Positions 36,794 to 59,019 are shown, counted from the stretch's first letter. The stretch is 64,000 nt of DNA from Candidatus Saccharimonadia bacterium (GCA_035544015.1 DATKIP010000012.1:29049-93048); one strand, 5' to 3'. Notes: generated from the sequence alone by a model not told the origin. Numbers and translations: made by a program.

Positions 36794-37306
36794 CTACTGC
36801 GAAACGCTCACGTGATCGGCACCAGTACTAAAGATCGAAGTATTGTTGTAGCTCGAGGAACCATTGTTCGAGCTGTAGCTGGAGCCATAAACCTGGGTAA
36901 CCCCTGAATTTGTGCCTCCGCTGGTTTGCGAGCTCATGTTGATTTCAACATTGCCGCTCTGGTTGTTCGAGGTATCCCCGCTGGTGCCACTGTCATTCGT
37001 GGTAATCCGAGTGTGTCCACCAGACACCTCAACATGGGCCTTACCGTTACCTGCCGGCACATCGGCGCTTCCATCCCTATCGGTTGGAACCTGTGTGCCG
37101 TTAACCGTGACCGTCGAGGCGGCGGTCGGTGCGGGCGACTCGGCAGTTTGGGCCTGGACCGTAGCTGAGTTAGCCCCAGTCACGGCCGCCTTTGAGCCCC
37201 GGCCGCCGGTCTGACCGCTGACCATCAAAGCCAGCCCCAACGTCACAACTCCCGCCGGCAGTACCCATTTGGCTTTTTTAATGTCCGTGAAACTCACCTT
37301 TTTCAT
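36794..37306 (-). CDS. Secreted low-complexity S/G/N/T-rich protein (170 aa)
   Basis: Signal peptide MKKVSFTDIKKAKWVLPAGVVTLGLALMVSG. No TM. Followed by hairpin 36770-36790. Confidence 0.5.
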   Translation of the reverse strand: MKKVSFTDIKKAKWVLPAGVVTLGLALMVSGQTGGRGSKAAVTGANSATVQAQTAESPAPTAASTVTVNGTQVPTDRDGSADVPAGNGKAHVEVSGGHTRITTNDSGTSGDTSNNQSGNVEINMSSQTSGGTNSGVTQVYGSSYSSNNGSSSYNNTSIFSTGADHVSVSQ

Positions 37307-37310
37307 CTCT

Positions 37311-41768: not shown

Positions 41769-43910
<2,142 letters not shown>

Positions 43911-43990
43911 TCAACAAAAAGGGAGCTTTTGGCTCGGCTTTACCCCCATTATACCGCCCGTGACTATCTGGAGCAAATAACCACCCTCGT

Positions 43991-45535
43991 TTGCCAGATC
44001 AGCCTCGAAGCCGTACAATTGCGCTAATGTTTAGAAAGATCGTTTCTCAGCTCTCGCTATCACCGAGTGCCGTCAGCCAGCTGACGTTCTACGCGCGTCG
44101 CCTGGGCAAGGAACGTGTCACACGCACGTTCACCGTGATCGCCGGCGTGCTGCTGGTGGGCCTCCAAAGTGCCGTCGTACTCGGCCCGCCCACCCCCTCC
44201 AACGCCGCCTCCCCGAGCGACATCATCCACGGCGGCATCGTCTCCCAGGCCGACCTTCTCAACCGCTACGACGAGAGCGCTGAGCTCCAGGCTATCTACA
44301 ACCGCCTCGGCATCAGCCGTGCCGACCTCCAAAACACCAAAAAAGCCACGGTCAACACCAAGGATCGCACCCTCAAATCTATCGGCCGCAGCCAGCACTC
44401 CGCCAGCGACTACGAAGTCACCATCGGGACCCACACCTATTGGATGCAGCCCCTGTACCAATGGGATACCGGCTCCAATGTTTACAACGGCTCAAACTAC
44501 GACGTACTCCAAGGCACCCGCTCACGCGACGGCAGCTATTTTGCCGTCATGTTCCACTGCGGCAATATTATCAGCAAAACTTACCCACCAACCCCAACCC
44601 CCACCCCCAAACCGACACCCAAGCCAACTCCCAAACCTACACCGACCCCCACCCCAAAGCCCACGCCAACACCCAAACCCAACACGCCCACGCTAGCCTG
44701 TGTCAAACTCACCCCCAGCACCACTTCGGGCGATGTGCCGCTGAAGGTAAATTACACCGGCTCCGGCACCGCTACCGGCCAAACCGTGGCCTCCTACAGC
44801 TTCGATTTCGGCGACAATAGCCCCACCGCCACGAGCGCCGCTCCCGCCGCTAGTCATACCTACACCACAGCCGGCAGTTTCGTCGCCACCATGCGCGTCA
44901 AAGGCTCGTTGGGCGCCACCACTGCCGTCACCAGCGCCTGCAGCGCCACCATTACTACCGCTGCCATTCCGCCGAGCTTCACCAAGGCCAAATCTGCCCT
45001 CAACCTCACCCAAAACATCGACGCCGTCACCAAGCCCGCAGGTGCCGGTGACCTCGTCAAATACCACCTCAGCACCAAAAATATCGGCGGCAGCGCTGGC
45101 GACTACACCGTCGTGGAACACATTACCGATGTGCTCGAATACGCCGACGTTACCGACCTCACCGGGGCCACCCTCACCGACGGCGTACTCACGTGGCCGG
45201 CGCAGTCCATTGCCCCCGACGCCACCCTCGTGACCACCTTCACGGTCAAAATCAAAGACCCCATCCCCACCACTCCCGTCGGCATCTCCGACAAAAATTC
45301 CTTCGACCTCCGCCTCGACAACGTCTACGGCACCACCGTCCAGATCACCCTCACTCCCCCACCCGCCAAGCAAGTTGAAATCGCCGCCGCTACCCTCCCA
45401 GACACGGGTGGCGCCACCAGCACCCTCGTCGTACTCCTCGTGAGCGGGCTCAGTCTCTTCTTCTACTTCCGCAACCGCCAACTCCTCACCGAAATCAAAT
45501 TACTACGCGGCGAATTCCAAGGAGGAACCCAGTAA
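43991..45535 (+). CDS. LPXTG-anchored surface protein with PT linker, PKD domain and DUF11-like repeat (sortase substrate). Likely start at MFRK, about 44027.
   Basis: C-terminal LPDTGGATSTLVVLLVSGLSLFFYFRNRQ is a sorting signal. YSFDFGDNSPTATSAAPAASHTYTTAGSFVATMRV is a PKD motif. TPTPTPKPTPKPTPKPTPTPTPKP linker. Confidence 0.75.
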   Translation: MPDQPRSRTIALMFRKIVSQLSLSPSAVSQLTFYARRLGKERVTRTFTVIAGVLLVGLQSAVVLGPPTPSNAASPSDIIHGGIVSQADLLNRYDESAELQAIYNRLGISRADLQNTKKATVNTKDRTLKSIGRSQHSASDYEVTIGTHTYWMQPLYQWDTGSNVYNGSNYDVLQGTRSRDGSYFAVMFHCGNIISKTYPPTPTPTPKPTPKPTPKPTPTPTPKPTPTPKPNTPTLACVKLTPSTTSGDVPLKVNYTGSGTATGQTVASYSFDFGDNSPTATSAAPAASHTYTTAGSFVATMRVKGSLGATTAVTSACSATITTAAIPPSFTKAKSALNLTQNIDAVTKPAGAGDLVKYHLSTKNIGGSAGDYTVVEHITDVLEYADVTDLTGATLTDGVLTWPAQSIAPDATLVTTFTVKIKDPIPTTPVGISDKNSFDLRLDNVYGTTVQITLTPPPAKQVEIAAATLPDTGGATSTLVVLLVSGLSLFFYFRNRQLLTEIKLLRGEFQGGTQ

Positions 45536-46107
45536 TGTCGAGTGAACGTATTTCATCTGGCGGTGAACGCAACGAACAAGCCGCAGCCGAGCTCGAAGCC
45601 GCTCGCGCCGAGCGTCTCGCCGAAATCCGCGAAACCGCCGCCGAACACGACCCCGCCGCCCATGCCGAAAAACGGGCCGAGCGAGCAGCCGAAAAAGCGC
45701 GCGAAGCCATCGAGATCCACGCCGCCGAGCCCGAGCCGAACAACACTTCAGAAACCGAAACCCCTCACACCGGTCGCCAGCTGCCGTTCCTCAATCAGCA
45801 TCTCAATTACGCCCAAACTGTCGCGAGTATGCAACGTCACCTGCGCCCCATCAGCCGCAGTTTCAGCAAGGTCATCCACACCCCCGCCATCGAAACCGCC
45901 AGCGAAGCCCTCGAAAAGACCGTCGCCCGCCCCTCAGTGCTCCTGGGCGCCACCTGGACGGCCCTCATTGTCGGGAGCGCATTCTATCTCATTGCCCGGC
46001 ATTACGGCTTTGCGCTGTCTGGCTCGGAACTGATCTTCTCGTTCATCGTCGGCGCTGTACTCGGGCTCGTCCTCGAGGGGCTGTGGCGCGGCCTGCGCCG
46101 CCGCTAA
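45535..46107 (+). CDS. Membrane protein (190 aa): Ala/Glu-rich N-terminal region plus 2 C-terminal TM helices
   Basis: ATG overlaps the upstream TAA, so translationally coupled to the LPXTG protein. TWTALIVGSAFYLIARHY..LIFSFIVGAVLGLVLEGLW. Confidence 0.5.
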   Translation: MSSERISSGGERNEQAAAELEAARAERLAEIRETAAEHDPAAHAEKRAERAAEKAREAIEIHAAEPEPNNTSETETPHTGRQLPFLNQHLNYAQTVASMQRHLRPISRSFSKVIHTPAIETASEALEKTVARPSVLLGATWTALIVGSAFYLIARHYGFALSGSELIFSFIVGAVLGLVLEGLWRGLRRR

Positions 46108-46139
46108 CGCGTCGCCGATCGACTCTCCCTGCTGCTTTC

Positions 46140-49100
46140 TTAGCCGATCACCACATTACCCTGCTCATCCACGTACACCTCACCAGGGGCTAATTTTTTG
46201 GGCTTCTCTTCCTTTGGCTTATCAAGTTCCGCCGCCGGCTTCTCACCGGTGGGCAGGATAAGCTTACCGGTCATCGAACCCGCTTCCCTAGCCGCAGCCG
46301 TCGGCTGGTTGTGCTCGGCCTCAGCCTTGCTGACAATCACCTCCGCCGGCTTCTCGCGACCACGCCCGCCCCGATGACGCCGACGCGGCGCATTGCGACT
46401 ACCACCGTCAGCTGAGCCGGCCGGAGCGGCCGCGCTCTCAGCGGCCGCGGGCTTCCGATTCACGACAGGCTCGGCCGTCTCCTCCGGGCGCGCTACGCCC
46501 ACGGGTGGTTCGGGGTTGCGAGCCATCACCGCCGTCGCTTGACGCTCCGCGCGGGCCTTGGCCACATCGTCCGCCGCCAATGACTGCGCTTGCGGCAATC
46601 CCTCGTCCTCATCGGCAGCCGCTGAAGCCGGCGGTGGCTCCGGCGAGAGAACCATAGCCCCCGCATGCTTAATGATGGCCGGCGCATCAGCCTCCACCGC
46701 CGGTACCGCTGGTGCTACCGGTGGCTCCACCGAAGCCGCCGGGACCGGCCGCTTCGGCTCTGCCGGCGCCTTCGCGGGAGATGCCACGGCCGGCGCTGGG
46801 GTCGGTGGCGGAGTTTGATTCACCGCCGGCGAGGCCGAGACCGGCTGAGGTTCCGGCGCTGAAACCGCAGCGGCCGGGCCTTTCACAATCTGCGCCGCCG
46901 TACCCGCCGTCTCGCGATTAAGCTCCGCTATCTCACGCGCAAACCGCTCCTTCGACGACTCAATCGGCTCTAGTGGCTGAATAACCTTCAGCCCGTGGTG
47001 CTGCGCCGCCGTCCTAGCGTTCGCAGCCGATGCCCCTGTTGACACACCCGGAGCAGTATTGAGCTCAAGATCACCGCCCGGTTGATCTTCCATTCGAGGT
47101 CCCGCCACCGGCTCGGGCAAACGCCGATGTTCCGCCGTAGCCTCAGGGTGAATAAGAGCTGCACTCATCACCGTATCAATTTCGTGCTCCGCTTTCTCGA
47201 TCTGGGCTGATGGCGACAACTCATTAGTCGTCGCCGGCGCTTTTTCAACCTCCGGCGACGACCCTTCAAGCACCAAAGCCTCTGCTTTCGGCGCCTCCGG
47301 CTCCGATACGATGAGTGTCGACGACGTCACGGCCGGCACTGGTTCCGCCGGCACCGGCTTAGGCGGCGCCGAATGCTCCGGCGCCTCCACGACCGACTGA
47401 GGGGTCGGCGCGGACTCCGCATTATCGTGCTGAGACTCCGCCGGAGGCGCCATCGATTCCGGCAAACTTTCCGCTACACTCACCACATCATCCAGACCCT
47501 GCGATGCATTTGCCAAGGCCGGGGCAGAAACCGGAACTGCCGGAGGCTGAGCCGACCCCGTATTCGCAATACTCGCCGCCAGCTCAGCCTGACCCACCGG
47601 AACTTGAACCGGCGCGGGCGCCGGCGGCGATGCTACAACGGGCGCGGGTAGGGGTTCAGGTACAGGCACGGGTTCCGCCGGCGCCGGCTCGACCAAAGCA
47701 ATTCCCTCCGGAAGACCATTTAGTGAAGGCTTACCATCGGCCGCCGATTCCTCACTTGGCGCCTCCGGGCTATTGAGCAATGATTCCGCCGCCGGATCCA
47801 CAAAGTGAATCAACGGCTCGGGCGGCTGTGGCTCCGCCGGGGATACCGGCTCGGGCACTGGGGTTCGCGGAGCCGGCTCAGCCATTGCCACCGAAGAAGC
47901 TGCGGGCGCCACTGGCATCACCGGGGTCTGAACTTCCTCCGGAACCGCCGCAGCAACCTCAACCGGCACCATCGGCTCAGGCGCTGGCGGCGTATCCTGA
48001 ACAGCCGGTAATACCGGCGGCGCCTCCACCATCGGCGGCTCAACCGGCGGCGCGGGTTCCGGCGCGCGCAACGGCTCCTGCACAGACAATGCGGCCGGCT
48101 CAACCGGCACCACCGGCAGAGGCCCACTGGCTACCACCGGCTGCGGCTCTGGCTCCGGACGCACCACCGGTTGAGGGGCAACCGCCACCGCTACTGGAGC
48201 CGACGGAGCAATGGGAACGACCGGAACAGCCGGAGGGGGCGCAGCCGCCGGAACCACCGGCGCCGCACCCAGCACGTCAACCCCCGCATAGGGATCATCC
48301 GGCAAAGCCCCACCCTCGCCCACCAACCCCGGCTCTACCAGAGGCTCCGGCGCCTCAGCGACACGTGGCGCAGTCTCGGGCGCCGCTGCACCCAGCACAT
48401 CAATATTCGCATACGGATCATTCTCAAGCGGCTGTCCATCGCCCACAAAGGCCTGATTACTCGCCTCACCCAACAACGGAATTTCACCCAACGACGGCGA
48501 CTCGGACTGGCTGGCCGACTGGCCGCCACCTCCCGTAATATCATTAATGGACAACGTCCCCCCGCCAGCCGGAGGCACCGAAACTCCAGCCACCGGCCTC
48601 GGGTCTCCAGGCAGATCCACCGGTGGCGCTCCAATCGGAGGCGGAGTCGTGGCGGCACCGGTCACAGCCGGAGCCGCCGGCGCAACCGCCGCTGCAGCCT
48701 GCGCTCGATCACCCGCCGCCGCAATTTGTTGCGCCAATTCATCGGCTGCGTTTGCCGGAGCTGCCGGTATTGGCGCCACAGGCTGTTGCACCGGCGGCGC
48801 CACGGCCTCCCGAAAAGCCGGCGCCACCGCACCCAAATCCAGCGGCTGAACCGCGGGCCGCGGGGTTACCACCGGCAACGGCGGCACACCCGCACCCGGC
48901 GCCGGCAGATCAACCGGCGGCGCACCAATCGGAGGCGGAGTCACCGAAAGGCCCACGGGAGCCGGCGCTGGGGCAGGCGGCGGCGGGGGGGGTGCAGCAG
49001 CAGCTGACGCCGAGTCAGACGTCAAAGCCAGCGCCGCCAACGGATCAAGTTGCGCCGCCGCCGAAACCGGAGGCGCCGGAAATGCCACGGGGGCAGGGGT

Positions 49101-51758
49101 CGCCACCGGAGCGGGCATCACCACGGGGGCCACCGGCGGCTGAGGCTGCGGCATCGGCGCGACCGCCGGCGCCGCCCCGACCGCAGGGATGGCCACATCC
49201 GCCGGCGCCGCCACGGGCGCGACAGGAGCCGCCGCGACCGGAGGCATGGCCGCCGCCGCGACCGGAGGCATGGCCACGGCCGCCGGCGCCGGAACCGGAA
49301 CCGGCGCAGCCGCTGGCGGCTTCGAACTCAATCGATCGATCAAATCTGCCTCCACCACCGCTTTATCATGCCCATATTTTGCCGCACTCAACTGCTTTAT
49401 AGCTAGCCCTAGCTCCACATTCACGTTTCCAATCGGCGCGCTGTCCGCAATACTAAACGGCTGGCTCGGCAACCCACCAATCATCAGCCGCATCGCCGCA
49501 TGGTAGTTGGGAATGTTCACGAGGTCACTCGCATCAAACACCGGTGCAAACTGCCTCACCATAAACTCCGCATCCTCCGGCCCCATCCGGTGAGCCACGA
49601 TCGTGCCAATGTTCCCAAACACCGCATCCCGAATCGGATCACTCAGCTGCCCGATGAATTGGTTCGCCACGATCAAATTCAGCCGGTACTTGCGCGCCTC
49701 GCTCAAAATGCTCGCAAAACTATCGGTCGAAAAATTCTGAAACTCATCCACGTACAGCGCAAAATCACTCCGCTCTGCCTCCGGCATATCCGCACGGCTC
49801 ATCGCCGCCGCCTGGAACTTAATCACAAAGATCATACCCAGCAGCTGCGAGTTGAGTTCCCCTATCCGCCCCTTACTCAAGTTCACGATCAAAATCTTTT
49901 TCTGATCCATCACCTCGCGAATGTTAAATGAGCTCTTCGTCTGCCCAATGATATTGCGCATCATCTCGTTGTTTTGGAACGCCCCAAACTTACTCACAAA
50001 CCACCCGAGCATCTCACTCTTGTGGTAGTCGCTCGTTTGCCCCATCTCCTTCGTCCAGAAGTCGATCACCGTCGGGTCCTTGAGGTACTTAAACTTCCGC
50101 TTCAAGTAGTCCGTATCCGTAAACACCTTCGGAATCTCAATGAACGTCGCCCCGTTCGGGTCGCTCATGAGCGTCAACGCTGCATTCCGGTACCAATGCT
50201 CATACCGCGGACCAATGATCCCCGTGTGCCCCGGGTCGTACAATTTGTAGAGCATGCCGATCGTCTCTTGCACCAAAAAATCCTTCTGGGTCGGATCCGT
50301 AAACTCAAACAGGTTCAGCCCCAGCGGATACTGCGTATCGGCCGGGTTAAAGTAAATCACATCCTCGGCTCGGCTCTTGGGCACCAACGCCAATAATTTC
50401 TCGGCGCTATCCCCGTGCGGATCAATAAACGCAAAGCCATTACCAGCCTGCATATCCTGCACTGCCAAGTTTTCGAGCATGGTCGATTTACCCGTACCCG
50501 TTTGACCCAAAATGTAGCTATGGCGGCGCCGATCTTCAGCACTTAGCCGAATCTCCTTGCGCACCCCCCGAAACTCGTTGTAGCCAAACATAAGCCCCGT
50601 TGTCGGCAACTGCACCGGCCCATCCACCTGCTTCGTCTGCTGGCGCTGCACGCTGGCGCTGGGCGTAAACTGCGAATCCGGCAAATGAAACAGCGTCGCG
50701 AGCTCCGCGCTCGACAGCACATTGCTCGCCAGCTCATTGGGGAAAAACCGAAAAATAAACGCCGTCACCAACCCCTGCACATCCAGCGCCGGCAAAAACT
50801 TAAATCCATTGAGCCCTGGGCTATCAAACAACGCAAACGTTGTCGCAATGTCGCGCAAGAGCTGCTGGCTACGCACCACCGAACCCGTCGACACGATCAC
50901 CCGCACCAGCACCTCAAATCCCGGATGCTTGGTTTTCTCCTCGATCCGGTCAACCTGGCCCAGCTGCAACTGCGAAACATCCGCTTGCCCACCATTTCGG
51001 GCCCGCTCCTCTTCGCGCCGCTCCGCCGGCGCCTTCACGGCCGCTTTAGCCAAATCCAAGGCCGAGAATTTCAGATCATTGTTCTTGCCCTTACGCATCC
51101 GATCAGCCAGCGCCACCGACTTTTTCACCCAACCACTACCGGCCGGCCGCAGCATAATCTGTATCGCCACCCCATCTTGCTTCTCCAGCGCCGATACCGT
51201 CGTCAACAACGCCTCCATCGGATCACGCTCCAGCTGCTCATATGTCGCAATCGGATACGCGCTCTCGGTTTTGAGCACCATCTCGCCACCCAAAGTCGCC
51301 GCCAGCCGCCCGTCCTGATTGAAGATGTTGTGGTCCTCCACCTCCTCCAGCCGCGAGCCCGGATACGCCGTTTGCACCGCCTTTTTCACCACGCTCACCA
51401 GCGCCACGGGCACGGCGGCGTAGAAGTGCACCAAACCATCCACCACGATCAGCTCCAACGCAATATGCCGCTGGCCATAGAAGCTACTCTTAAACCCTTC
51501 GGTGGCCGTGCCCGCTAGCAGGTTATAGAGCACCTCTGCCTGGGAAGTCTTTTCGCGCATTATCTCGCGCAAATCACGATTTTCGCCCTGCGTATCCGAG
51601 CTGGGCGGCGGCAGATGAATCAGCACGGGCACCATCTTGAGACCCCGTTCAATCGCTTTAGCGCGCCGCAATTTCTTCTGATACGTAAAGTACGCCACCG
51701 CGCCCAAGCCCCCGGCCAGCGTGAAAAATATCAGCACAATCACCAAGATCACGCTCAC
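46140..51758 (-). CDS. Giant membrane-anchored P-loop ATPase of the HerA/FtsK/VirD4-TraD (type IV coupling protein-like) superfamily with about 1100-aa Pro/Ala-rich repetitive C-terminal tail (1872 aa)
   Basis: N-terminal TM MSVILVIVLIFFTLAGGLGAVAYF. Walker A HSYILGQTGTGKSTMLENL. Walker B/DExx ALYVDEFQNF. SEARKYRLNLIVANQFIGQL (RK...Q motif of TraD/VirD4/HerA). After about aa 760 the sequence is Pro/Ala/Val-rich, with internal repeats (TPPPIGAPPVDLP x2; DPYA.IDVLGAAP x2). Confidence 0.75.
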   Translation of the reverse strand: MSVILVIVLIFFTLAGGLGAVAYFTYQKKLRRAKAIERGLKMVPVLIHLPPPSSDTQGENRDLREIMREKTSQAEVLYNLLAGTATEGFKSSFYGQRHIALELIVVDGLVHFYAAVPVALVSVVKKAVQTAYPGSRLEEVEDHNIFNQDGRLAATLGGEMVLKTESAYPIATYEQLERDPMEALLTTVSALEKQDGVAIQIMLRPAGSGWVKKSVALADRMRKGKNNDLKFSALDLAKAAVKAPAERREEERARNGGQADVSQLQLGQVDRIEEKTKHPGFEVLVRVIVSTGSVVRSQQLLRDIATTFALFDSPGLNGFKFLPALDVQGLVTAFIFRFFPNELASNVLSSAELATLFHLPDSQFTPSASVQRQQTKQVDGPVQLPTTGLMFGYNEFRGVRKEIRLSAEDRRRHSYILGQTGTGKSTMLENLAVQDMQAGNGFAFIDPHGDSAEKLLALVPKSRAEDVIYFNPADTQYPLGLNLFEFTDPTQKDFLVQETIGMLYKLYDPGHTGIIGPRYEHWYRNAALTLMSDPNGATFIEIPKVFTDTDYLKRKFKYLKDPTVIDFWTKEMGQTSDYHKSEMLGWFVSKFGAFQNNEMMRNIIGQTKSSFNIREVMDQKKILIVNLSKGRIGELNSQLLGMIFVIKFQAAAMSRADMPEAERSDFALYVDEFQNFSTDSFASILSEARKYRLNLIVANQFIGQLSDPIRDAVFGNIGTIVAHRMGPEDAEFMVRQFAPVFDASDLVNIPNYHAAMRLMIGGLPSQPFSIADSAPIGNVNVELGLAIKQLSAAKYGHDKAVVEADLIDRLSSKPPAAAPVPVPAPAAVAMPPVAAAAMPPVAAAPVAPVAAPADVAIPAVGAAPAVAPMPQPQPPVAPVVMPAPVATPAPVAFPAPPVSAAAQLDPLAALALTSDSASAAAAPPPPPPAPAPAPVGLSVTPPPIGAPPVDLPAPGAGVPPLPVVTPRPAVQPLDLGAVAPAFREAVAPPVQQPVAPIPAAPANAADELAQQIAAAGDRAQAAAAVAPAAPAVTGAATTPPPIGAPPVDLPGDPRPVAGVSVPPAGGGTLSINDITGGGGQSASQSESPSLGEIPLLGEASNQAFVGDGQPLENDPYANIDVLGAAAPETAPRVAEAPEPLVEPGLVGEGGALPDDPYAGVDVLGAAPVVPAAAPPPAVPVVPIAPSAPVAVAVAPQPVVRPEPEPQPVVASGPLPVVPVEPAALSVQEPLRAPEPAPPVEPPMVEAPPVLPAVQDTPPAPEPMVPVEVAAAVPEEVQTPVMPVAPAASSVAMAEPAPRTPVPEPVSPAEPQPPEPLIHFVDPAAESLLNSPEAPSEESAADGKPSLNGLPEGIALVEPAPAEPVPVPEPLPAPVVASPPAPAPVQVPVGQAELAASIANTGSAQPPAVPVSAPALANASQGLDDVVSVAESLPESMAPPAESQHDNAESAPTPQSVVEAPEHSAPPKPVPAEPVPAVTSSTLIVSEPEAPKAEALVLEGSSPEVEKAPATTNELSPSAQIEKAEHEIDTVMSAALIHPEATAEHRRLPEPVAGPRMEDQPGGDLELNTAPGVSTGASAANARTAAQHHGLKVIQPLEPIESSKERFAREIAELNRETAGTAAQIVKGPAAAVSAPEPQPVSASPAVNQTPPPTPAPAVASPAKAPAEPKRPVPAASVEPPVAPAVPAVEADAPAIIKHAGAMVLSPEPPPASAAADEDEGLPQAQSLAADDVAKARAERQATAVMARNPEPPVGVARPEETAEPVVNRKPAAAESAAAPAGSADGGSRNAPRRRHRGGRGREKPAEVIVSKAEAEHNQPTAAAREAGSMTGKLILPTGEKPAAELDKPKEEKPKKLAPGEVYVDEQGNVVIG

Positions 51759-51782
51759 CGCCGCACCCTCCAGCCCAAGACG

Positions 51783-52226
51783 TTACGCTCCTTTGGACTT
51801 AGTATCGTCGGGGTTCGGATCCGCTACATTGATCCCATAACGCTTTTGCAAATAATCCTGCTGCAAATCTTCGATCGCCTCTTCCTCACCATACGGATCA
51901 CCCGCGTGATCTCGAATCACTACCTCGGCCTTATCAACCCATTCAGGCTCAATCACGTCCACATCCGCTGCCGTCGCCGGATTCGCCGAGGCCGAAGTCG
52001 GCGCCGCCCCCACGGCCGGAGTCGCCGCTATCGCCGCCGCCACATCCGCCGCCGACAGCTTCGGCGCCGCCGGTTGGCCGCCCGCCGGAGCCGCCGCCGG
52101 CCGCTCGCCACCCGCAGCCATCTCCGGGGTCACAGCCGGCATCGCACGCTCCGGGCTCGGGCCCATCGGCCGCTCGCCTCCAGCCGGCATATTCGGTGAG
52201 GGTGATTGACTATCCATTACCCGCAA
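51783..52226 (-). CDS. Hypothetical protein (147 aa), Pro/Ala-rich N-terminus and acidic conserved C-terminus. Immediately upstream of, and co-oriented with, the giant ATPase.
   Basis: A 24-nt gap separates it from the downstream ATPase gene. IEPEWVDKAEVVIRDHAGDPYGEEEAIEDLQQDYLQKRYG. Confidence 0.45.
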   Translation of the reverse strand: MRVMDSQSPSPNMPAGGERPMGPSPERAMPAVTPEMAAGGERPAAAPAGGQPAAPKLSAADVAAAIAATPAVGAAPTSASANPATAADVDVIEPEWVDKAEVVIRDHAGDPYGEEEAIEDLQQDYLQKRYGINVADPNPDDTKSKGA

Positions 52227-52307
52227 TTATACCATATATTGCGCTTGTGCTAACCTGCCGCGGCCGCCCGATTTTGCTACAATGAAACCCAATAACGCAG
52301 AAAAGCT

Positions 52308-52919
52308 ATGCCAACTCCCGAAGCTCCATCCGAGCATCCCCCAGTCACAGCCCAAGAGTTAGACCACTCTCAAGACGCCGACAGAGCCAGGTACCTCGAC
52401 GCCGTAGCCCAAATTGGCGCCGAGCTTGGCTACCAGGGTCCGCCAAATCATTCACCCTACGAGCTCGCCATGCGCCTCACCGGTGGCAATGCCGAAATCA
52501 GCACCATCAGGCGAGTTGCTCGCGCGGCCCACGATAGGGGTATGCTCTCTGATCAGTTCAGCTCCAGTCAACTTGCCATCTTTCGCCTCGTTGGCGACGC
52601 GGCGCCGGATTGGGGTGAACGAAAAGCTGAAATCCGCCAAACTCCACTGTGGCAACGGATAGTGGCCAGGGCCGAGAAGGAACCCATCTTCTTTGGCGAC
52701 CCCGACATCCTCTGGAAGGACATCGCCACTCTATACGGTCTCGATCTAACCACCACCTTTGATAGCCTCGATCAGTCCATCAAGGCCGAAACCAATGAAG
52801 ACAACGCTCAGGGTCTACCGCCAAACCGCCGCCATTACACCCCGCCTCTCTTCAACGCCTACGACCTATTCAGCGACGAACAAAACGGCGCCGGTTTCGG
52901 CCGAGCAATAGACTGGTAG
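52308..52919 (+). CDS. Hypothetical protein (203 aa)
   Basis: Clean ORF with coding-like composition and no recognised motif. Confidence 0.5.
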   Translation: MPTPEAPSEHPPVTAQELDHSQDADRARYLDAVAQIGAELGYQGPPNHSPYELAMRLTGGNAEISTIRRVARAAHDRGMLSDQFSSSQLAIFRLVGDAAPDWGERKAEIRQTPLWQRIVARAEKEPIFFGDPDILWKDIATLYGLDLTTTFDSLDQSIKAETNEDNAQGLPPNRRHYTPPLFNAYDLFSDEQNGAGFGRAIDW

Positions 52920-52943
52920 CCGGCACCCAAAACGCCTCAGAAT

Positions 52944-54377
52944 CTAATTATGCACCCACACCGGCGTCCCGATCGTCGACCAATTGTATAGGAATTCCGC
53001 CGTCGCATCCGGCAAGTTCACACACCCATGCGACCCGCCGTAGTAGTAATCCGGCCCACCAAATTTACCGTTCCGCCATACCGCATCATGCAAGCCATAA
53101 CCAGAGTAGAAGGGCATCCAGTACTTCACTGGCACGTCGTAATTATACCCATATTGATACCCCACCAGATGAGTATTCGTCGTTTTGTAATAAATGCTAA
53201 ACAGTCCTGTAACAGTGCCCAAACCAGCGCCCGTAGCCCCACTCGTTAGCGGTGATTCGTAAATCACCTGGTGATCCTGCCATACCCACAAATGCTGCTT
53301 GCTCAGATTTATTTCGATGTACCGGCCCAAATCCAAACTCACGAGCGTAGTAGAGGTCGTCTTAAACGGCACCGCATGCGAGGTAATCGCAAATGTCAGG
53401 GGAGTCTGCTTGCCCACCGCCTCGGCCACCGCCGCCGTGATCGAATCCTGATCGATAGCCGTCCCCTCGACGCCCTCCTGAGCCACCTTGGCAACACCGT
53501 TCTCCACATTCACTTTTTTGTTTGTCGGCGCCACGTCCAGCCGATTGGCCAAACCCTGCACATAATTTTTCAACCGAGCCGTATCCACCTGCGGTACCAA
53601 CTTATGAGCCAGCCCATCCGGCTGCTTCACAAACCCAATCCAAGTACCAATCTCGGCCGGAGTAGGGGTAAACGTCTGGCCCTGGTAGCTCAAAACCACC
53701 GGCACCGCCATCAAATGCCTGGTTTGCTCAATCGTCGGCGCCAGGGCCTGCACCCGAATATCGGCCAGCTGTTCGCGAGGCTTCAGCGCCAGGGTCGCCC
53801 CGGCGGGGGAGCGCACATCATCCTCAATCAGCCGCTCCAATCCAATCCGATCAATCGACCAGCCGCTTTTTTCCGGCACCGTCGTCACCGCTCCAGCTGC
53901 CACCACCACCGCCGCGTCGACCGGGGGAGTACCAATTTTGTTTGACACACTCGTCGCAAACGCATTGAGCTGGACACGATTGAGCCGGTATGACAGCTCC
54001 AGGGGCTCGTGGTGCAACGGCGGCAACCAGCTCTCACGACCCGAATTGTAAGCACTCGAAAGCGTCGCCTCCACATCGAAGGTCACCCCCAAGTCAGCCG
54101 CCGCCACGTTATATTTGTCGCCCGCCACATCGAGCTTCAACCGGTAAGCCGCCACATTCTTCGCAATCACCATCCGCGCCTGAGCCAGCGTTAGCCCGCT
54201 CAAATTATGGCCGGCCACCCGCACCCCCGGAAGCATCCGCCCATCGTAGTAAGCCTGGGTAGCCATATGCATACCCACAGCAAAAAAACCCACTACCAGG
54301 CCCATAGCGGCCACCCGGGTCACCGACGTAAAACCGGCGCTTCCGTGCCGCTCAGGATCTAATCTCCGCCTCAGCAT
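52944..54377 (-). CDS. L,D-transpeptidase (YkuD domain) with N-terminal TM anchor and large extracellular region
   Basis: C-terminal YkuD catalytic motif ...HDAVWRNGKFGGPDYYYGGSHGCVNLPDATAEFLYNW. N-terminal VAAMGLVVGFFAVGMHMA is a TM helix. Confidence 0.75.
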   Translation of the reverse strand: MLRRRLDPERHGSAGFTSVTRVAAMGLVVGFFAVGMHMATQAYYDGRMLPGVRVAGHNLSGLTLAQARMVIAKNVAAYRLKLDVAGDKYNVAAADLGVTFDVEATLSSAYNSGRESWLPPLHHEPLELSYRLNRVQLNAFATSVSNKIGTPPVDAAVVVAAGAVTTVPEKSGWSIDRIGLERLIEDDVRSPAGATLALKPREQLADIRVQALAPTIEQTRHLMAVPVVLSYQGQTFTPTPAEIGTWIGFVKQPDGLAHKLVPQVDTARLKNYVQGLANRLDVAPTNKKVNVENGVAKVAQEGVEGTAIDQDSITAAVAEAVGKQTPLTFAITSHAVPFKTTSTTLVSLDLGRYIEINLSKQHLWVWQDHQVIYESPLTSGATGAGLGTVTGLFSIYYKTTNTHLVGYQYGYNYDVPVKYWMPFYSGYGLHDAVWRNGKFGGPDYYYGGSHGCVNLPDATAEFLYNWSTIGTPVWVHN

Positions 54378-54429
54378 AGAGCTAGTATACCGCTAACGCT
54401 TTATTTGAAACAGAGCAAAATGCGCTCCG

Positions 54430-56742
54430 CTAGCCGCGGCGCTGCGCACCCACCTTGTGGCGCAATCGAGCCAAGACAGCCTCCTCGAGCTGCGTCGCAT
54501 CAGACTCGGTCGGCGTGCGGTCGGGGAGTGCCAGCCTCACTCGAATCGTCATACCCTTATGACCCGGCGGCAACCCCTCGCCATAATAATCACCCACAAA
54601 CGTCAGCTCCCAACCCGCCGCCGCTTCCCGCACAGCCTGCCACGACACCTCGCGCGGCACCACGAGCGCAATATCGCGCGTCGTCGCCGGAAACACCCCC
54701 GGCGCTACATATGCTCGCGTGCCGCTGGCCGCCACCAGGGGACCGAGGTCAAGCTCCAAGTGCGCCACTTCGCCGTCCAGTTTGAGCGCGCGCAGGTGGC
54801 TCGGCAGCAATTGCCCAATACCCCCCACCACCTTGTCGCCCACCAGCACTTCACCAAACCGCCCATTCACATAGGCCGCATGCTGCGCCGGCCGCACCAC
54901 CACATCCACATTGAGCGCGTCGCCCAGCGCATCGAGCAACCCCTTAGCCACCGCGTAAGCCCGCTCCGGGTCCAACACGGTCACCGCCAAACGCTCCGGT
55001 TCGTCCGGCTGATCACCCGCGCTTCGCTTCAAAAACACCTTCGAAATCTCGTAAAATGTCACTGCCTTGGCATACATTCGGTTGCGCTCCAGCGTCGTCA
55101 AATGACTCGGCAACAAGCTGCTCCGCAAATACGCCTGCTCACTCGAGAGCGGATTCTTGAGCTTCAAATGCTCGCCAAGGTCCAGTCCCAGCCGTTCCAG
55201 CTGATGCGCCGACACAAACGAGTACGTCATTACCTCGAAGCCGCCGGCAGCCCACAGCGTATCGCGAATCCTTCGCCGCCACGTTCTCTGCCGATCAAAT
55301 TCAATCCGACGCGGCCGCCACGAGGGAATAGTGGACGGCACGCGCTCGTAACCCATCACGCGCACAATTTCCTCTACGAGATCAGCCGGCTCGCGCAAAT
55401 CCGGCCGCCACCATGGCACCTCAGCCACTTCGATCACCTCGCCCTTAACCTTCGCCTCAATTCCCAGCCGCGCCAGCGCCGCCACGGCCTCTTTGTGCGT
55501 AATTCCAAAACCCACCGTGCGCACCAATTTCGGTACCGCTAGTGCAATATTCCAAGTCGAAGGATGTGCATATGGTGCTTCGTAAGTATGCACTAACTGG
55601 CCCTCAGCCACCTCGCCCAGCAATTCCACCGCGCGGGCCAAGCCCAGAGGGGGGAGTACCACCGGCAGCGCTCGCTCAAACCGCGCGCTTGCCTCCGTAC
55701 GCAACCCATGGCGCTGAGCCATCTTGCGCACCGTAGCGCCGTCAAACACCGCCGCCTCCAGCAAAATCTCTTCGGTCTCACCCGACACCTCCGTCGACTG
55801 CCCGCCCATCAACCCAGCCAGCGCAATCGGCCCCGAACCGTCAGCAATCACCAAATCAGCCTCAGACAGCGTGCGCCGTACACCATCGAGCGTCACCAGC
55901 TCTTCGCCAGCCCGAGCCCGCCGCACGACGATAGGGAGCTTCACCTTGGCGGCGTCAAAAGCGTGCAGCGGTTGCCCAGTCTCCAGCAGCACATAATTCG
56001 TCACGTCCACCACCGGCCCAATCGACCGCACACCAGCCGCTCGCAACCGGGCCGCCACCGAGAGGGGAGAGCCAGCCGTCTGCCGCACGCGTACCTTTGC
56101 CACCATATACCGAGCCGCCTCAGGCTTCGCCGCCAAAACCCCGCTCGCATCCGCAAACTCCACCAGCGGGGGAGTCAAGGGCAGCAGCGTCGAATCAGTC
56201 ATTGCCGCCACTTCGCGCGCCAATCCGTACACGCTTTGAACGTCCCAGCGGTTGGCCGGGGTCTTAAGGTCAATGACCGACTCGGCAGGGTAGAGTGAGC
56301 TCACCGGCTCACCAAGCCCCGCAGTAGGGGGCAGCTCAAGCAGTCCGTCGTGATTCTGCCCGAGACCCAATTCCTGCTCGCTACACAACATTCCCTCGCT
56401 ATATTCACCTCGCAATTTCGCCTTCGCAATCCGCTCGCCATCTGGTAACACGGCACCCACTTGAGCAAATGCTACTCGCATGCCCTCGCGAACATTGGGG
56501 GCACCACATACTACGCCATATTTACCCTCATTCGTCTCTACCTCGACCAATTTAAGCCTATCGGCTCCCGGGTGCTGAACAACTTTTTTAACCAGAGCCG
56601 TCACTACCCTTTTGTCTATTTCGGTTGAAGTAATAAATTGTTCAATCTCCATGCCAGCCCGCTCCAGCGCCTCAACCACTTGACGGTCACTCAACATTGT
56701 GCGACGTAGGCATTCTTTGATCCAAGTTGATGTCACCTTCAT
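54430..56742 (-). CDS. pheT: Phenylalanine--tRNA ligase beta subunit (start at MKVTSTWIKE; ATGA overlap with pheS stop)
   Basis: MKVTSTWIKECL..., tRNA-binding N-terminal domain, B3/B4 and FDX-ACB regions. Located directly downstream of pheS. Confidence 0.9.
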   Translation of the reverse strand: MKVTSTWIKECLRRTMLSDRQVVEALERAGMEIEQFITSTEIDKRVVTALVKKVVQHPGADRLKLVEVETNEGKYGVVCGAPNVREGMRVAFAQVGAVLPDGERIAKAKLRGEYSEGMLCSEQELGLGQNHDGLLELPPTAGLGEPVSSLYPAESVIDLKTPANRWDVQSVYGLAREVAAMTDSTLLPLTPPLVEFADASGVLAAKPEAARYMVAKVRVRQTAGSPLSVAARLRAAGVRSIGPVVDVTNYVLLETGQPLHAFDAAKVKLPIVVRRARAGEELVTLDGVRRTLSEADLVIADGSGPIALAGLMGGQSTEVSGETEEILLEAAVFDGATVRKMAQRHGLRTEASARFERALPVVLPPLGLARAVELLGEVAEGQLVHTYEAPYAHPSTWNIALAVPKLVRTVGFGITHKEAVAALARLGIEAKVKGEVIEVAEVPWWRPDLREPADLVEEIVRVMGYERVPSTIPSWRPRRIEFDRQRTWRRRIRDTLWAAGGFEVMTYSFVSAHQLERLGLDLGEHLKLKNPLSSEQAYLRSSLLPSHLTTLERNRMYAKAVTFYEISKVFLKRSAGDQPDEPERLAVTVLDPERAYAVAKGLLDALGDALNVDVVVRPAQHAAYVNGRFGEVLVGDKVVGGIGQLLPSHLRALKLDGEVAHLELDLGPLVAASGTRAYVAPGVFPATTRDIALVVPREVSWQAVREAAAGWELTFVGDYYGEGLPPGHKGMTIRVRLALPDRTPTESDATQLEEAVLARLRHKVGAQRRG

Positions 56743-57770
56743 CGAAACTGCTCCAAAAACTTGAAGTTGGGTCGCCAAAACTCGCGCACGTCATCCACTC
56801 CATACTTTATAGCTGCCAACCTCTCCGGCCCAAAGCCAAAGGCAAAGCCGCTATACACCTCCGGGTCGATCCCCACATTGCGCAACACCTGCGGATGCAC
56901 CATGCCAGCACCCCCCAGCTCAAGCCAACCAGTGCCACTACACAAATGACACCCTTTGCCATCCCGCAAACCAGTGCCGCCACAAATCACACATGTTGCA
57001 TCCATCTCAACACTTGGCTCAGTATAAGGAAAATAATTCGACCGCAGTCGTACCTTCGTCTCGTCGCCCAGCACTCCACGCATCATTTGCTCAAGCGTAC
57101 CCTTGAGGTCACCCAAGCTAATGCCCTCATCCACCACCAATCCCTCAATCTGATAAAAGCTCCACGAATGCCGGGCATCCTCATCCTCATTGCGATAAAC
57201 CTTCCCCGGAGCAATGATCCGGATAGGGAAGTCGTCATGATGCTCAAGCATATAGCGAATCTGAATCCCCGAGGTATGCGTCCGCGGCAAATTCCCCTCT
57301 TCCAGATAGAATGTATCCTGCATGTCGCGCGCGGGGTGGTCCTTGCCCACTAAAAGCGCCTCAAAGTTATGCCACTCGGTCTCCACCTCCGGACCATCCG
57401 CCACCTGATACCCCATCTGCCAAAACAAGTCCACCAGCTCATCAAGCACCATGCTCACCGGATGGTGATGCCCCAACACCGGCCAAACTCCCGGCGCCGT
57501 CACATCCAGCGGCTCAGCCAACGCCATTGCCTCCACTGCGGCAGCCAGTTCCGTCTCGCGAGCCGCCATCGCCGCCTCCACCGCCTCCCGCAACGCGTTG
57601 GCCCGCTTGCCGGCCTCTGCCCTCTCCCCCGCCGGCAGCGCCCCCACCGCCTTGAGCTCATCGGTGAGGCCGCCCTTGCGCCCCAGATACGCCACACGCA
57701 CCAGCTCAAGCTCACTCAAGCTCGAAGCATCCGCAATTTTTTCCATGATTTCGGCTGCGTCTAGGGCCAC
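56739..57770 (-). CDS. pheS: Phenylalanine--tRNA ligase alpha subunit
   Basis: HHPVSMVLDELVDLFWQMGY, class II motifs (..FRNEDEDARHSWSFYQIEG.., GAGMVHPQVL..). Confidence 0.9.
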   Translation of the reverse strand: MALDAAEIMEKIADASSLSELELVRVAYLGRKGGLTDELKAVGALPAGERAEAGKRANALREAVEAAMAARETELAAAVEAMALAEPLDVTAPGVWPVLGHHHPVSMVLDELVDLFWQMGYQVADGPEVETEWHNFEALLVGKDHPARDMQDTFYLEEGNLPRTHTSGIQIRYMLEHHDDFPIRIIAPGKVYRNEDEDARHSWSFYQIEGLVVDEGISLGDLKGTLEQMMRGVLGDETKVRLRSNYFPYTEPSVEMDATCVICGGTGLRDGKGCHLCSGTGWLELGGAGMVHPQVLRNVGIDPEVYSGFAFGFGPERLAAIKYGVDDVREFWRPNFKFLEQFR

Positions 57771-58135
57771 CTAAGCCTCACGTAAACTTCCACGATCACA
57801 AGTAATATTCCCAGTAGTATAGCATCAAGCACGCCCAGCTGGTGCAACGAGCTCAAACTCAGCATCCCCACCAGCCAACCACTCACCAGCATCCCCTGCC
57901 GCCACGAATAACGCAGCCGCGCCGCAGCCGTCGCATGTAGCCTCAAATACGTCTTGGCCCCATACAGGCCCAGGGTCAACCCGCACGCCAGCACCAGCAG
58001 AAGCAGCACAAACCACACCGTCACCCCAAGCGGTCCCACCGCCTCCGGATTCGTCACAATCAAGCTCAGCACCAAACCGATCGCTCCCGCCAGCGACCCA
58101 ATAATCAAAACCGTTATCCACGCCAACACCGTCAC
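57761..58135 (-). CDS. Small membrane protein (about 124 aa, GTG start), first gene of the membrane-pheS-pheT transcription unit
   Basis: 4 TM helices. Overlaps the pheS start by about 10 nt. Confidence 0.45.
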   Translation of the reverse strand: MTVLAWITVLIIGSLAGAIGLVLSLIVTNPEAVGPLGVTVWFVLLLLVLACGLTLGLYGAKTYLRLHATAAARLRYSWRQGMLVSGWLVGMLSLSSLHQLGVLDAILLGILLVIVEVYVRLRWP

Positions 58136-58187
58136 CGCATATCACTCACGCTTACGTCTCCCCTATTATCTCACCCCGCCACCATCC

Positions 58188-58244
58188 ACCGCAAACCAAA
58201 AACCGCTCAGATGCGGGCGCCTCGCGGCGGCCGCATCTGAGCGG
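58188..58244 (-). terminator. Strong intrinsic terminator (14-bp stem plus U5)
   Basis: On the minus-strand RNA: CCGCUCAGAUGCGG-(14-nt GC loop)-CCGCAUCUGAGCGG followed by UUUUUGGUUUG. It ends about 55 nt upstream of the membrane-protein GTG. Confidence 0.55.
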
Positions 58245-58730
58245 TTCAGCAAAATAAGTGCAGAGTTACGGGGCGAAATCTGAAGCATCCATGTGTGTAA
58301 TTGACGCCAGTCGCCCCGCAACGATCTCTACCCGTGTGGAGCGCATAGCGTTTTTCCTTTATGAGGATTGATGAACAACGTGGTGCGTTTTTGTTTTGGA
58401 GTAAAGATTTTTGTGTGGTTGGATTAGTCGACCGCAAATTATTGTGGCTATTGCTTCGAGCTGAATCCATATTACTTCCCACCAACCCGTATGGGGTGGC
58501 CGGAAGCATTCGGCTACGACCATGGGTCATAACCGCGTGCTTCCGGCAACCCGATGACTCTGCGCGATACCTTGGTTTGGGCCCAAAGTAAGAGTCTTCT
58601 GGCCGTGACCATTCTGGTCGAGACAGTAGAGCAAACCCGGATTAGAAATAAGGGGGATACCTCTAACCGGGGTTCGCTCTACCGTCTGGGTGCGGAAGAA
58701 AGCAATGAGAACTAAACTATCAACGAACTG
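58245..58730 (-). ncRNA. Candidate structured non-coding RNA or long regulatory leader (about 490-540 nt) between trpS and the pheST operon. Identity unknown.
   Basis: AT-rich. Contains only short ORFs with Arg/His-rich junk composition. Several long hairpins whose G.U pairs are valid only on the minus strand (e.g. 58620-58688 with an 18-bp stem; 58497-58547 with a 14-bp stem). Bounded by a promoter-like element and a terminator. Confidence 0.3.
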
Positions 58731-58735
58731 AACAT

Positions 58736-58764
58736 AACTTAGCACAAGCAGTTTAGATTGTCAA
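58736..58764 (-). promoter_or_regulatory. Candidate promoter for the non-coding locus
   Basis: On the minus strand: TTGACA (58764-58759), a 17-nt spacer, then TAAGTT (58741-58736). Confidence 0.3.
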
Positions 58765-59019
58765 TATTCTTATGTTATTTAGCGCCCTGCTCCCATAAAT
58801 GACTTAGGATAGGGAAAATAACGCCATAAACCCCCTATTTTTGTTCCCCTGAAATCGGGTCTATGTAGAGATATTAACAACATTTATGCACAAAAGTTTA
58901 GGCCGTTCTCGATTGCAGAAAAAAGATTGTAAAATATTACCCTAATAAAGCAAATTATTCACGGGTACTCAAAAACCTTAGATCATGCGTCCACCCAGAA
59001 AATAGAGCACACGAGCGTA

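Follow-up and report, generated by a model that had tools for sequence, protein, structure and literature searches.

A 1872-aa ATPase encoded in 64,000 nt of Candidatus Saccharimonadia bacterium DNA (GCA_035544015.1 DATKIP010000012.1:29049-93048; this whole stretch is called the window) is, on balance, probably a Saccharimonadia chromosomal member of the monoderm-type family of type IV coupling proteins (T4CPs), whose tails would recruit partners for a membrane-anchored hexamer. By homology and fold, its motor belongs to the VirD4/VirB4/HerA clade; its gene and a small gene directly upstream, orf147, form a conserved two-gene operon; and its tail of about 1,060 aa evolves approximately 5 times faster than the motor, yet stays under purifying selection. 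The coordinates of all these features are collected in Table 1.

The ATPase was encoded by a single uninterrupted open reading frame (ORF) on the minus strand, as in the initial annotation, and a GGAGG Shine-Dalgarno sequence was read directly about 8 nt ahead of its GTG start. All the motifs quoted in that annotation were present: Walker A, Walker B, EARKYRLNLIVANQ, the duplicated tail stretches and the C-terminal peptide. The Walker A residues were invariant in both homologue alignments (A1 and A2), and this stretch aligned with the P-loop region of TrwB and DotL; Walker B aligned with LFIDEL of TrwB. The RK...Q region, whose loss on alignment would have weakened the assignment first proposed, was retained with invariant residues and aligned with GRKAGLRVVAGLQ of TrwB, an alignment which is weak alone and is backed by the structural superposition.

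One helix, as initially described, anchors the protein: the only convincing transmembrane segment in the hydropathy scan was aa 3-21 (Kyte-Doolittle score of 2.78, 19-residue window), and the hydrophobic windows within the tail contained 4-6 prolines each, with no further transmembrane segment there. Since this single N-terminal helix is followed by a positive flank and the ATPase must reach ATP, the positive-inside rule suggests an N-out/C-in topology, with motor and tail in the cytoplasm. The AlphaFold2 (AF2) model of aa 1-812 (56-sequence multiple alignment; mean predicted local distance difference test score, pLDDT, of 83.5) showed a transmembrane helix reaching aa 40, then an alpha/beta domain (aa 41-385), and a RecA-like domain into which an all-helical stretch (about aa 486-604) is inserted between the two Walker motifs. 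The alpha/beta domain was matched by DUF8128 (PF26449) in the precomputed Pfam record for the identical 1872-aa product and in nearly all the homologues, and had no match among the top structural hits of the ATPase model.

Structural comparison of the model gave its highest figures for the VirB4 C-terminal domain (29.8), the DndH/DptH C-domain (28.6), TrwB (27.2) and DotL (25.0), followed by HerA (24.6), Cagbeta (21.9), TcpA (17.7) and FtsK (17.4). The superposition on TrwB aligned 359 of 420 residues, more than the nucleotide-binding domain (NBD) alone, and Foldseek agreed with this comparison. When the family profile was run against PDB sequences, only TrwB (4e-7) and DotL (1.8e-6) were significant, with nothing for FtsK or VirB4. 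Of the features of T4CPs, an NBD of the VirD4/VirB4/HerA clade, the all-alpha insertion and the N-terminal membrane anchor were found, whereas a score above a curated profile cutoff was not, nor was a genomic association with a type IV secretion system (T4SS) or relaxase in the window or, at the sensitivity of tblastn, within 10 kb in 80 related loci. Many orthologues carried precomputed matches to PF10412, PF02534 or PF12696. The T4CP/HerA assignment of the initial annotation is upheld by fold, motifs and a plasmid relative which passes T4CP thresholds (see below), but not by the profile scores of the window protein itself.

Three other identities were rejected. A canonical FtsK/SpoIIIE with its motor misplaced, an error for which the initial annotation had allowed, disagreed with both profiles and structure comparison, the polytopic N-domain and the C-terminal alpha-beta-gamma/KOPS-binding architecture being absent. 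VirB4 was set aside for lack of the AAA_10/CagE_TrbE_VirB profile and of the VirB4-type N-terminal domain. HerA (HerA-NurA or HerA-Sir2/DUF4297) was set aside for lack of a HAS-barrel, of a DUF87 score above threshold (20.7 vs. a cutoff of 23.2 bits) and of a nuclease partner: the neighbours of the ATPase gene were orf147, a surface protein gene and housekeeping genes, with no NurA, Sir2 or other nuclease beside it. For a defence-type HerA, the PADLOC HerA and mad8 matches were restricted to portions of the motor, and no PADLOC match was obtained for the neighbours. The N-terminal domains of HerA and VirB4 were not matched in the window protein, and their Pfam models were absent or sub-threshold.

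The family was placed by its plasmid relatives, from a tblastn comparison of the ATPase with plasmids (342 records). The homologue from an Embleya plasmid (WP_331738717.1, 812 aa; 27% identity over aa 158-770, E 2e-54) passed the Pfam gathering cutoffs of PF02534 (T4SS-DNA_transf), PF10412 (TrwB_AAD_bind) and PF12696 (TraG-D_C), and its gene was flanked by those for a VirB4-like ATPase and a relaxase (Replic_Relax), PrgI and NlpC/P60 genes being close by. The homologue from a B. subtilis plasmid (WP_345805471.1, “DUF87 domain-containing protein”, 885 aa, E 4e-34) adjoined a Replic_Relax gene and an AAA_10 VirB4 gene (7.7e-116). Because plasmid relatives sit between VirB4 and relaxase genes, the family was assigned to the monoderm-type T4SS coupling proteins. 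Beside VirB4, these relatives are the second ATPase of monoderm conjugation operons, in which this architecture serves as the coupling protein. Homology with these proteins spanned the N-terminal domain and the motor, from aa 89-158 through approximately aa 775-800; in contrast to the window gene, their genes are on plasmids beside relaxase/T4SS genes, neither is preceded by an annotated orf147-like gene, and the products of 812-885 aa are tailless or nearly so.

Relatives with the full DUF8128 and motor architecture were also found in Bacillus/Geobacillus phages: SPO1 gp27.4 (L084 4776-7496), phage G gp156, the “MsbA-like” protein of phage JL, ORF201 of 0305phi8-36 and a TP-84 protein. The match to phrog_5156 had an E value of 8e-80 and a Foldseek match one of 9e-46, and the phage JL protein had a TM-score of 0.69 over 851 columns. 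These phage proteins, of unknown function, differ from the window protein in their identity of only about 20%, the lack of a T4SS context and the lack of a long tail.

Classical T4CPs have two transmembrane helices. The window ATPase resembles TrwB (R388), VirD4 and Cagbeta in its membrane-anchored N-terminus, its RecA-like NBD with an all-helical insertion, and the succession of Walker A, DPxGD, the Walker B DE and the RK...Q motif. It differs from them in having one transmembrane helix instead of two, only 16-17% identity, a tail of about 1,060 aa, the additional 345-aa DUF8128 domain between anchor and motor (absent from classical TrwB/VirD4), no adjacent T4SS/relaxase genes, and profile scores just below the cutoffs. 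For the tail, the closest comparison comes from established knowledge of TraD and DotL. The C-terminal extension of F TraD binds TraM, the extreme C-terminal peptide doing the binding, and the C-terminal tail of Legionella DotL/IcmO binds IcmS/IcmW/LvgA/DotN; both tails are disordered, carry short docking motifs and measure some 140-200 aa. The order of motor, flexible linker and terminal recognition peptide is common to these proteins and the window ATPase, and DotL was among the top structural and sequence matches for the window motor. However, the window tail is 5-7 times longer, with at least 9 conserved islands, and the sequence of its terminal motif, PGEVYVDxxGNV with a predicted beta-hairpin fold, is not related to theirs.

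The tail was rich in A (22%), P (20%), V (11%) and E (8%), with a net charge of -68, no Trp or Cys and 8 aromatic residues; disorder-promoting residues made up 70% of it. It had been estimated at more than 1100 aa; a long tail was indeed found, but the folded part reaches to about aa 811 in the AF2 model, which accounts for the shorter value given here. Its disorder, proposed from the beginning, was substantiated in a compact homologue (P0010, 990 aa, motor 71% identical) with a 180-aa tail that keeps LSDITG, GLILP and GEVYVDEHGNV: in the AF2 model of this protein the body had a pLDDT of about 90 and the linker one of 36-55 without secondary structure. LSDITG and GLILP also remained low, and the terminal hairpin alone rose to about 70, the last 20 residues (pLDDT 69-74) forming two short strands, a predicted beta-hairpin. 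The tail had also been called repetitive. The two quoted motif pairs do exist, but the rest is compositional bias: the DNA contained only short duplications (two copies of 39 nt at 92% identity, two of 69 nt at 71% and a 24-nt unit present 2.3 times), composition-corrected self-BLASTP detected no internal repeats, and the tail was therefore considered low-complexity, not repetitive. Tandem or segmental repeats as the building units of the tail were rejected by the same self-BLASTP.

At least 9 conserved islands were embedded in the diverged linker of the long-tail clade to which the window protein belongs. Their consensus, from N- to C-terminus, was PPPIGAPPVDLP (twice), LSxxDITGG, DPYAxIDxLG (twice) and IHFVDP, followed by EHxID..S..LIH, RLPEPV, KVIqPLEPI, GLPxAxSLAAxDVAKA, TGKLIlPt and the terminal EKPKKLAPGEVYVDExGNVxIG. 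Other clades had tail motifs of their own: LIEAHExDG (1-3 copies) and KxMIATH[RK]. The C-terminal peptide, which had been described as conserved, proved to be so, GE[IV]x[IV]Dx2-3GN[IV] occurring inside the last 30 residues of 64 of 120 homologues and of all 10 long-tail relatives; more distant orthologues ended in DTIxIDxxGN[LF] or [DE]EVSIKLR. The possibility of a signal common to other proteins was rejected by a six-frame scan, limited to the window and 1.4 Mb of related flanking loci, in which the peptide appeared only at the ATPase C-terminus.

Tails were found family-wide. The 72 complete GTDB orthologues had a median length of 980 aa and a median tail of 173 aa, and the closer homologues among the 90% clusters a median tail of 378 aa (maximum 606 aa); tails of 750-1,200 aa were reached by the clade of the window protein only. 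The members of this clade (P0121-P0128) were of 1842, 1584, 1706, 2006, 1870, 1708, 1694 and 1773 aa, and two GTDB relatives also had long tails (L001, 1568 aa in total; L033, tail of 1028 aa); all ended in ...KLxxGE[VI][YF]VDxxGNVxxGE. The length comparison across homologues, which the initial annotation had advised, thus revealed a whole clade of 1,584-2,006-aa proteins: “extraordinary” is justified in that no other clade reaches such lengths, but the window protein is not the longest, and its tail is not an isolated case. In comparisons with L033 and L001, the ratio of nonsynonymous to synonymous substitution rates (dN/dS) was 0.27-0.29 for the tail and 0.07-0.09 for the motor, values which are approximate, dS being saturated and the low-complexity alignment uncertain; dN/dS was below 0.4 in both halves of the tail.

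There is an appreciable chance, short of even, that the length of the tail is largely neutral, the product of a low-complexity expansion driven by GC content and slippage in which only the motifs and the end-peptide matter; this would be compatible with a coupling protein. The P+A content of the tail followed the GC content of the locus (Spearman rho 0.68, p 6e-10) and tail length did so weakly (rho 0.35, p 0.004), both correlations having been calculated without phylogenetic correction. Orthologue tails ranged from 73 to about 1,200 aa on the same motor, the linker was about 50% identical where the motor was 89% identical, and the compact P0010 retained three islands in only 180 aa. On the other hand, tails of 750-1,200 aa have been kept across an entire clade whose motors are 74-87% identical, the low dN/dS extends over both tail halves, and the long-tail proteins have more islands than the compact ones. 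These data suggest that Pro/Ala richness is largely a by-product of a high-GC genome, and that the motifs and a long flexible spacer are what is selected.

The synteny counts were obtained from 80 related GTDB loci. A small gene was located directly upstream of the ATPase gene and on the same strand in 74 of them, usually at -11 to +50 nt from the ATPase start and often overlapping it. In the window this gene, orf147, was confirmed 24 nt upstream with no terminator in between. Its Pro/Ala richness was confined to the N-terminal half, and its product is most likely of 144 aa (ATG at 52217) rather than the 147 aa first assumed, because the alternative TTG (52226) sits within the -10 box of a promoter-like site, itself a consensus match only, directly upstream of orf147. 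The conserved part comprised about 50 aa (DLIEKEWVxKAKxIxxxTxxDP...ADYxKKRY); the 191 homologues were all “hypothetical”, and orf147 had no Pfam, NCBIfam, PADLOC or PHROG family match. The ATPase had been regarded as an orphan. It is not, because it shares a conserved operon with orf147 and because published data show such a distance from virB4 to be usual among Patescibacteria T4CP homologues (PMC12102498).

The family was large: the 90%-cluster database gave more than 7,600 word-index matches, 5,571 representatives reached E<=1e-30, and its named members were overwhelmingly Saccharimonadia; an orthologue with the same operon was present in the cultivated strain TM7i (L067). It is almost certainly the same set of genes as the VirD4-type T4CP homologues of Quinonero-Coronel et al. 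(2025; PMC12102498), which are likewise chromosomal, usually far from virB4 and widespread in Saccharimonadia; they number 5,713 in 2,918 Patescibacteria genomes, and only 148 are near virB4. According to the same study, the T4SS of Patescibacteria is MPF-FATA-like, mostly without relaxase, and genuine systems often have their T4CP gene at a distance from virB4. Both the family and its location away from virB4 (PMC12102498) are therefore already known, as is the N-terminal domain as a Pfam DUF. That study counts homologues; as far as found in its text, DUF8128, the variable tail, the motifs, orf147 and the gyrBA synteny are not mentioned. Literature searches returned nothing for DUF8128 and nothing relevant for disordered tails of T4CPs. 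Neither the family-wide arrangement of motor, variable disordered linker and conserved end-peptide nor its expansion in one clade to a tail of at least 1,000 aa with multiple islands was found described in the searchable literature, and the same holds for the orf147 partner and for the synteny with gyrBA. Some clear orthologues (P0031, P0054, L041, L047) were labelled Nanoarchaeia, Dormibacteraeota, Pristimantibacillus or Dongiaceae, and are likely to come from mis-binned contigs of metagenome-assembled genomes.

As a coupling protein, by analogy with TrwB and DotL, the ATPase would form a membrane-bound hexamer presenting six cytoplasmic tails. These may act as flexible multivalent docking arms, whose short motifs would bind partners or cargo for delivery to the ATPase, following the principle of TraD-TraM and the DotL adaptors on a larger scale; the conserved islands within a diverged linker and the pLDDT of the P0010 hairpin (69-74 vs. 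36-55 in the linker) are consistent with a docking platform. By denatured-chain scaling, a coil of 1,060 residues would have a radius of gyration of about 12 nm, an end-to-end distance of about 30 nm and a contour length of about 330-380 nm, and this contour is of the order of the width quoted for these ultra-small cells (100-300 nm; PMC12857230). The orf147 product would be co-translated with the ATPase and act as its accessory or regulator in stoichiometric amounts. As client, the MPF-FATA-like T4SS of Patescibacteria, encoded elsewhere in the genome, would be the most likely; as there is no relaxase, its cargo would be protein, perhaps nucleic acid, and not a conjugative relaxosome.

Several observations weigh against this interpretation. 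The window protein scored 20.3 bits with PF10412 (TrwB_AAD_bind; cutoff 20.5) and 34.6 with TIGR03743 (cutoff 366), SXT_TraD was also sub-threshold, and no match to PF02534 or PF12696 was reported in the Pfam scan. The DUF8128 domain has neither a known function nor a structural match, and the fold alone does not imply T4SS coupling, since the Bacillus phage relatives lack a T4SS. Profile scans detected no T4SS gene in the 64-kb window, as initially stated, and no second related ATPase was found within 10 kb in the 80 loci at the sensitivity of tblastn. A t4cp homologue of S. epibionticum, at most a candidate orthologue of the window ATPase, is reported to be non-essential while the T4SS cluster is essential, and exaptation was “not ruled out” by the authors (PMC12102498); Wang et al. 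(2023) reported no recognisable coupling protein in the T4SS cluster (PMC10633639). As to the tail, the charge-hydropathy plot placed it on the “folded” side, owing to its Ala and Val content. Finally, in L085 (JGI Ga0642625_00633, 81% motor identity) an in-frame TAG (8518-8520) cut the reading frame in two, giving an ORF of 839 aa for the motor and one of at least 1039 aa for the tail, which keeps every conserved island and the C-terminal peptide. Sequencing error, true gene splitting and read-through would each account for this TAG; with the tail ORF fully conserved, the covalent linkage of motor and tail may not be obligatory, unless the L085 assembly is in error.

A less probable explanation, though one with a tangible share of the evidence, is that the ATPase is an exapted, T4SS-independent translocase, alone or with orf147, serving for instance to handle the chromosome or nucleic acid at the membrane or to take up or export host-derived nucleic acid, with the tail recruiting clients. 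The separation of the gene from virB4 in nearly all Patescibacteria would fit this, as would the S. epibionticum phenotype (PMC12102498), the phage homologues of the full architecture and the proximity of the motor to the DndH/DptH and HerA DNA translocases. The synteny with the gyrase genes points the same way, gyrB following in 64 of the 80 loci and gyrA in 58, but this adjacency may be mere backbone conservation, because Saccharimonadia genomes are highly syntenic. Against exaptation, the nearest characterisable relatives sit in conjugation operons, genuine systems often encode the T4CP away from virB4 (PMC12102498), and no DNA-binding domain was detected in the ATPase.

More speculative than either the coupling protein or the exapted translocase, and rather doubtful, is a model in which six acidic tails of about 1,000 residues make up a cytoplasm-spanning capture net or scaffold in cells of 100-300 nm, with each island docking a different client and the hairpin and orf147 gating the motor; it would be either a hub feeding the T4SS or a T4SS-independent motor moving host-derived nucleic acid or protein. 

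An extracellular tail, spanning the envelope or tethering the epibiont to its host cell as had been suggested at first, is highly improbable: a long, acidic tail full of Pro bears a superficial likeness to wall-spanning regions, and an LPXTG surface protein is encoded next door, but the topology contradicts it (a single N-terminal transmembrane helix with the positive flank KKLRRAK on its C-terminal side, no transmembrane segment in the tail, and a tail that follows a cytoplasmic ATPase), the tail has no signal peptide, sortase motif or wall-binding domain, and the LPXTG gene is on the opposite strand.

The long ORF was checked for artefacts, as the initial annotation had recommended. A 16,017-bp contig of the Logan assembly of run SRR8863102 was identical to window positions 43564-59580 (0 mismatches) and gave the same 1872-aa gene call (PF26449), and uninterrupted ORFs of 1,568-2,006 aa, all with the same end-peptide, were present in at least 10 relatives. 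In the tail, codon-position GC (GC1 of 0.71-0.86, higher than GC2 of 0.53-0.69) fits a translated Ala/Pro/Val/Glu-rich frame, and the other five frames were closed (14-56 stops, longest open stretch of 331 codons). Breaks in the assemblies fall in the proximal tail, with a 100-N scaffold gap in L087 and frameshifts in L086, apparently a low-coverage long-read contig. The search for distal-tail homologues, swamped by low-complexity words, gave 7 fragments, one of them at a contig end and one behind a scaffold gap. These breaks and the L085 TAG might suggest that the long ORF arose by misassembly, misannotation or the joining of two genes, but this has next to no credibility given the two identical assemblies over 16 kb, DNA repeats of at most 69 nt, the closed alternative frames, the long ORFs of the relatives, the purifying selection on the tail, and the fact that nearly every family member is tailed and ends in a related motif.

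Table 1. Features of the ATPase gene, orf147 and the convergent gene pair. Positions are in nt of the window; residue numbers refer to the ATPase.
Feature	Position	Strand	Basis or remarks
DUF8128/T4CP-family ATPase ORF, 1872 aa	46140..51758	minus	GTG start; stop codon 46140-46142
N-terminal transmembrane helix, aa 2-26, then QKKLRRAK	51681..51755	minus	Kyte-Doolittle; AF2 helix aa 2-40
N-terminal alpha/beta domain, aa 41-385 (Pfam DUF8128, 345 aa)	50604..51638	minus	
Motor, aa 386-811, RecA-like NBD	49326..50603	minus	
Walker A GQTGTGKS, aa 418-425, then IDPHGD, aa 445-450	50484..50507	minus	Motif match
Walker B ALYVDE, aa 667-672	49743..49760	minus	D671 and E672 invariant in alignment
EARKYRLNLIVANQ, aa 687-700, RK...Q motif common to T4CPs	49659..49700	minus	R689, K690, N699 and Q700 invariant
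Disordered tail, putatively cytoplasmic, aa 812-1850	46209..49325	minus	Composition; homologue pLDDT
TPPPIGAPPVDLP (twice), aa 940-952 and 1038-1050	48609..48941	minus	Kept in P0001, L085 and long-tail clade
LSINDITGG island, aa 1069-1077	48528..48554	minus	Beyond clade as LS[LI]xDI[TV]GG; also in P0010
DPYAx[IV]DVLGAA (twice), aa 1114-1125 and 1155-1166	48261..48419	minus	Motif match; clade conservation
IHFVDP island, aa 1317-1322	47793..47810	minus	Kept in long-tail clade and L085
Islands AEHEIDTVMSAALIH, aa 1523-1537; RLPEPV, aa 1546-1551; KVIQPLEPI, aa 1591-1599	46962..47192	minus	Clade conservation map
GLPQAQSLAADDVAKARAER island, aa 1720-1739	46542..46601	minus	Clade conservation map
TGKLILPT island, aa 1830-1837	46248..46271	minus	GLILP in P0010; GKLIMPT in L085
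C-terminal peptide EKPKKLAPGEVYVDEQGNVVIG, aa 1851-1872, predicted beta-hairpin	46143..46208	minus	Family conservation; P0010 AF2 model
orf147, 144 aa from ATG 52217	51783..52217	minus	Pro/Ala-rich N-terminal half; conserved C-terminal module DVIEPEWVDKAEVVIRDHAGDPYGEEEAIEDLQQDYLQKRYG
Promoter-like site: TTAGCA, 16-nt spacer, TATAAT, extended -10 TG	52226..52253	minus	10/12 consensus matches
orf190, 190 aa, acidic helical N-terminus, two C-terminal transmembrane helices	45535..46107	plus	Convergent with ATPase gene
PKD-domain LPDTG-anchored surface protein, 514 aa	43991..45535	plus	PKD_4 1.4e-9; PKD 3.5e-9

The convergent LPXTG/PKD protein gene and coupled membrane protein gene downstream of the ATPase gene, both already annotated, were confirmed. 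The surface protein had its LPDTG followed by a transmembrane segment, and the stop codon of its gene overlapped the start of orf190 by 1 nt. The pair was present at this position in 52 of the 80 loci; these are syntenic neighbours, for which a functional relation and backbone synteny are alike possible. On the other side, between pheT and orf147, a 203-aa familyless ORF (plus strand) and a gene for a YkuD L,D-transpeptidase with PG_binding_4 (minus strand) occupied positions 52308-54377. Neither was found by tblastn in the 80 GTDB loci, and the YkuD gene was at the same position in the closest relatives (L085 and L087); the block is conserved apart from this segment, an insertion specific to the lineage.

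Elsewhere in the window, a run of minus-strand ORFs just upstream of gyrA (31315-38980) had no Pfam or NCBIfam match: products of 498 aa (31315-32811), 744 aa (33784-36018), 196, 170, 222 and 334 aa. Two plus-strand regions encoded cell-envelope or wall functions of possible relevance to an epibiotic lifestyle: a 1056-aa protein with two DUF4082 domains (8496-11666), and a cluster (23677-29286) comprising a Peptidase_C39-like protein, Amidase_2 (N-acetylmuramoyl-L-alanine amidase), an ABC ATPase and an FtsX-like permease. The rRNA genes, on the minus strand, were unlinked, 23S (4929-8183) and 5S (4653-4760) being about 21 kb away from 16S (29512-30973). The genes for tRNA-Ile and tRNA-Ala are usually in the rRNA spacer; here they were on the plus strand (16035-16111 and 16262-16337), apart from the rRNA genes. 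The 23S match was longer than its model (3,255 nt vs. 2,925 positions), so an insertion or intron of about 330 nt is probable. An 89-nt tRNA-Ala(GGC) called by ARAGORN (14566-14654, minus strand) inside an MFS-transporter ORF (13791-15170) was not confirmed by Rfam at the gathering threshold and is probably a false positive.

The single species tested cannot grow epibiotically without the T4SS of Patescibacteria, whose cluster, on the published view, has no recognisable coupling protein; this ATPase family is the obvious candidate for its receptor. If the ATPase works without a T4SS, this would be a new use of a T4CP motor, common to the uncharacterised Bacillus phage proteins such as SPO1 gp27.4. 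Were the capture net real, in either of its forms, it would offer a direct handle on the exchange between epibiont and host. The tail motifs, the invariant end-peptide and the co-translated orf147 could be used as baits for cargo and adaptors, and the series of orthologue lengths, with tails of about 70-1,200 residues on a near-unchanged motor, constitutes a natural experiment on linker length in an ultra-small cell. Such experiments are feasible, since TM7i, which has an orthologue with the same operon, is cultivated.

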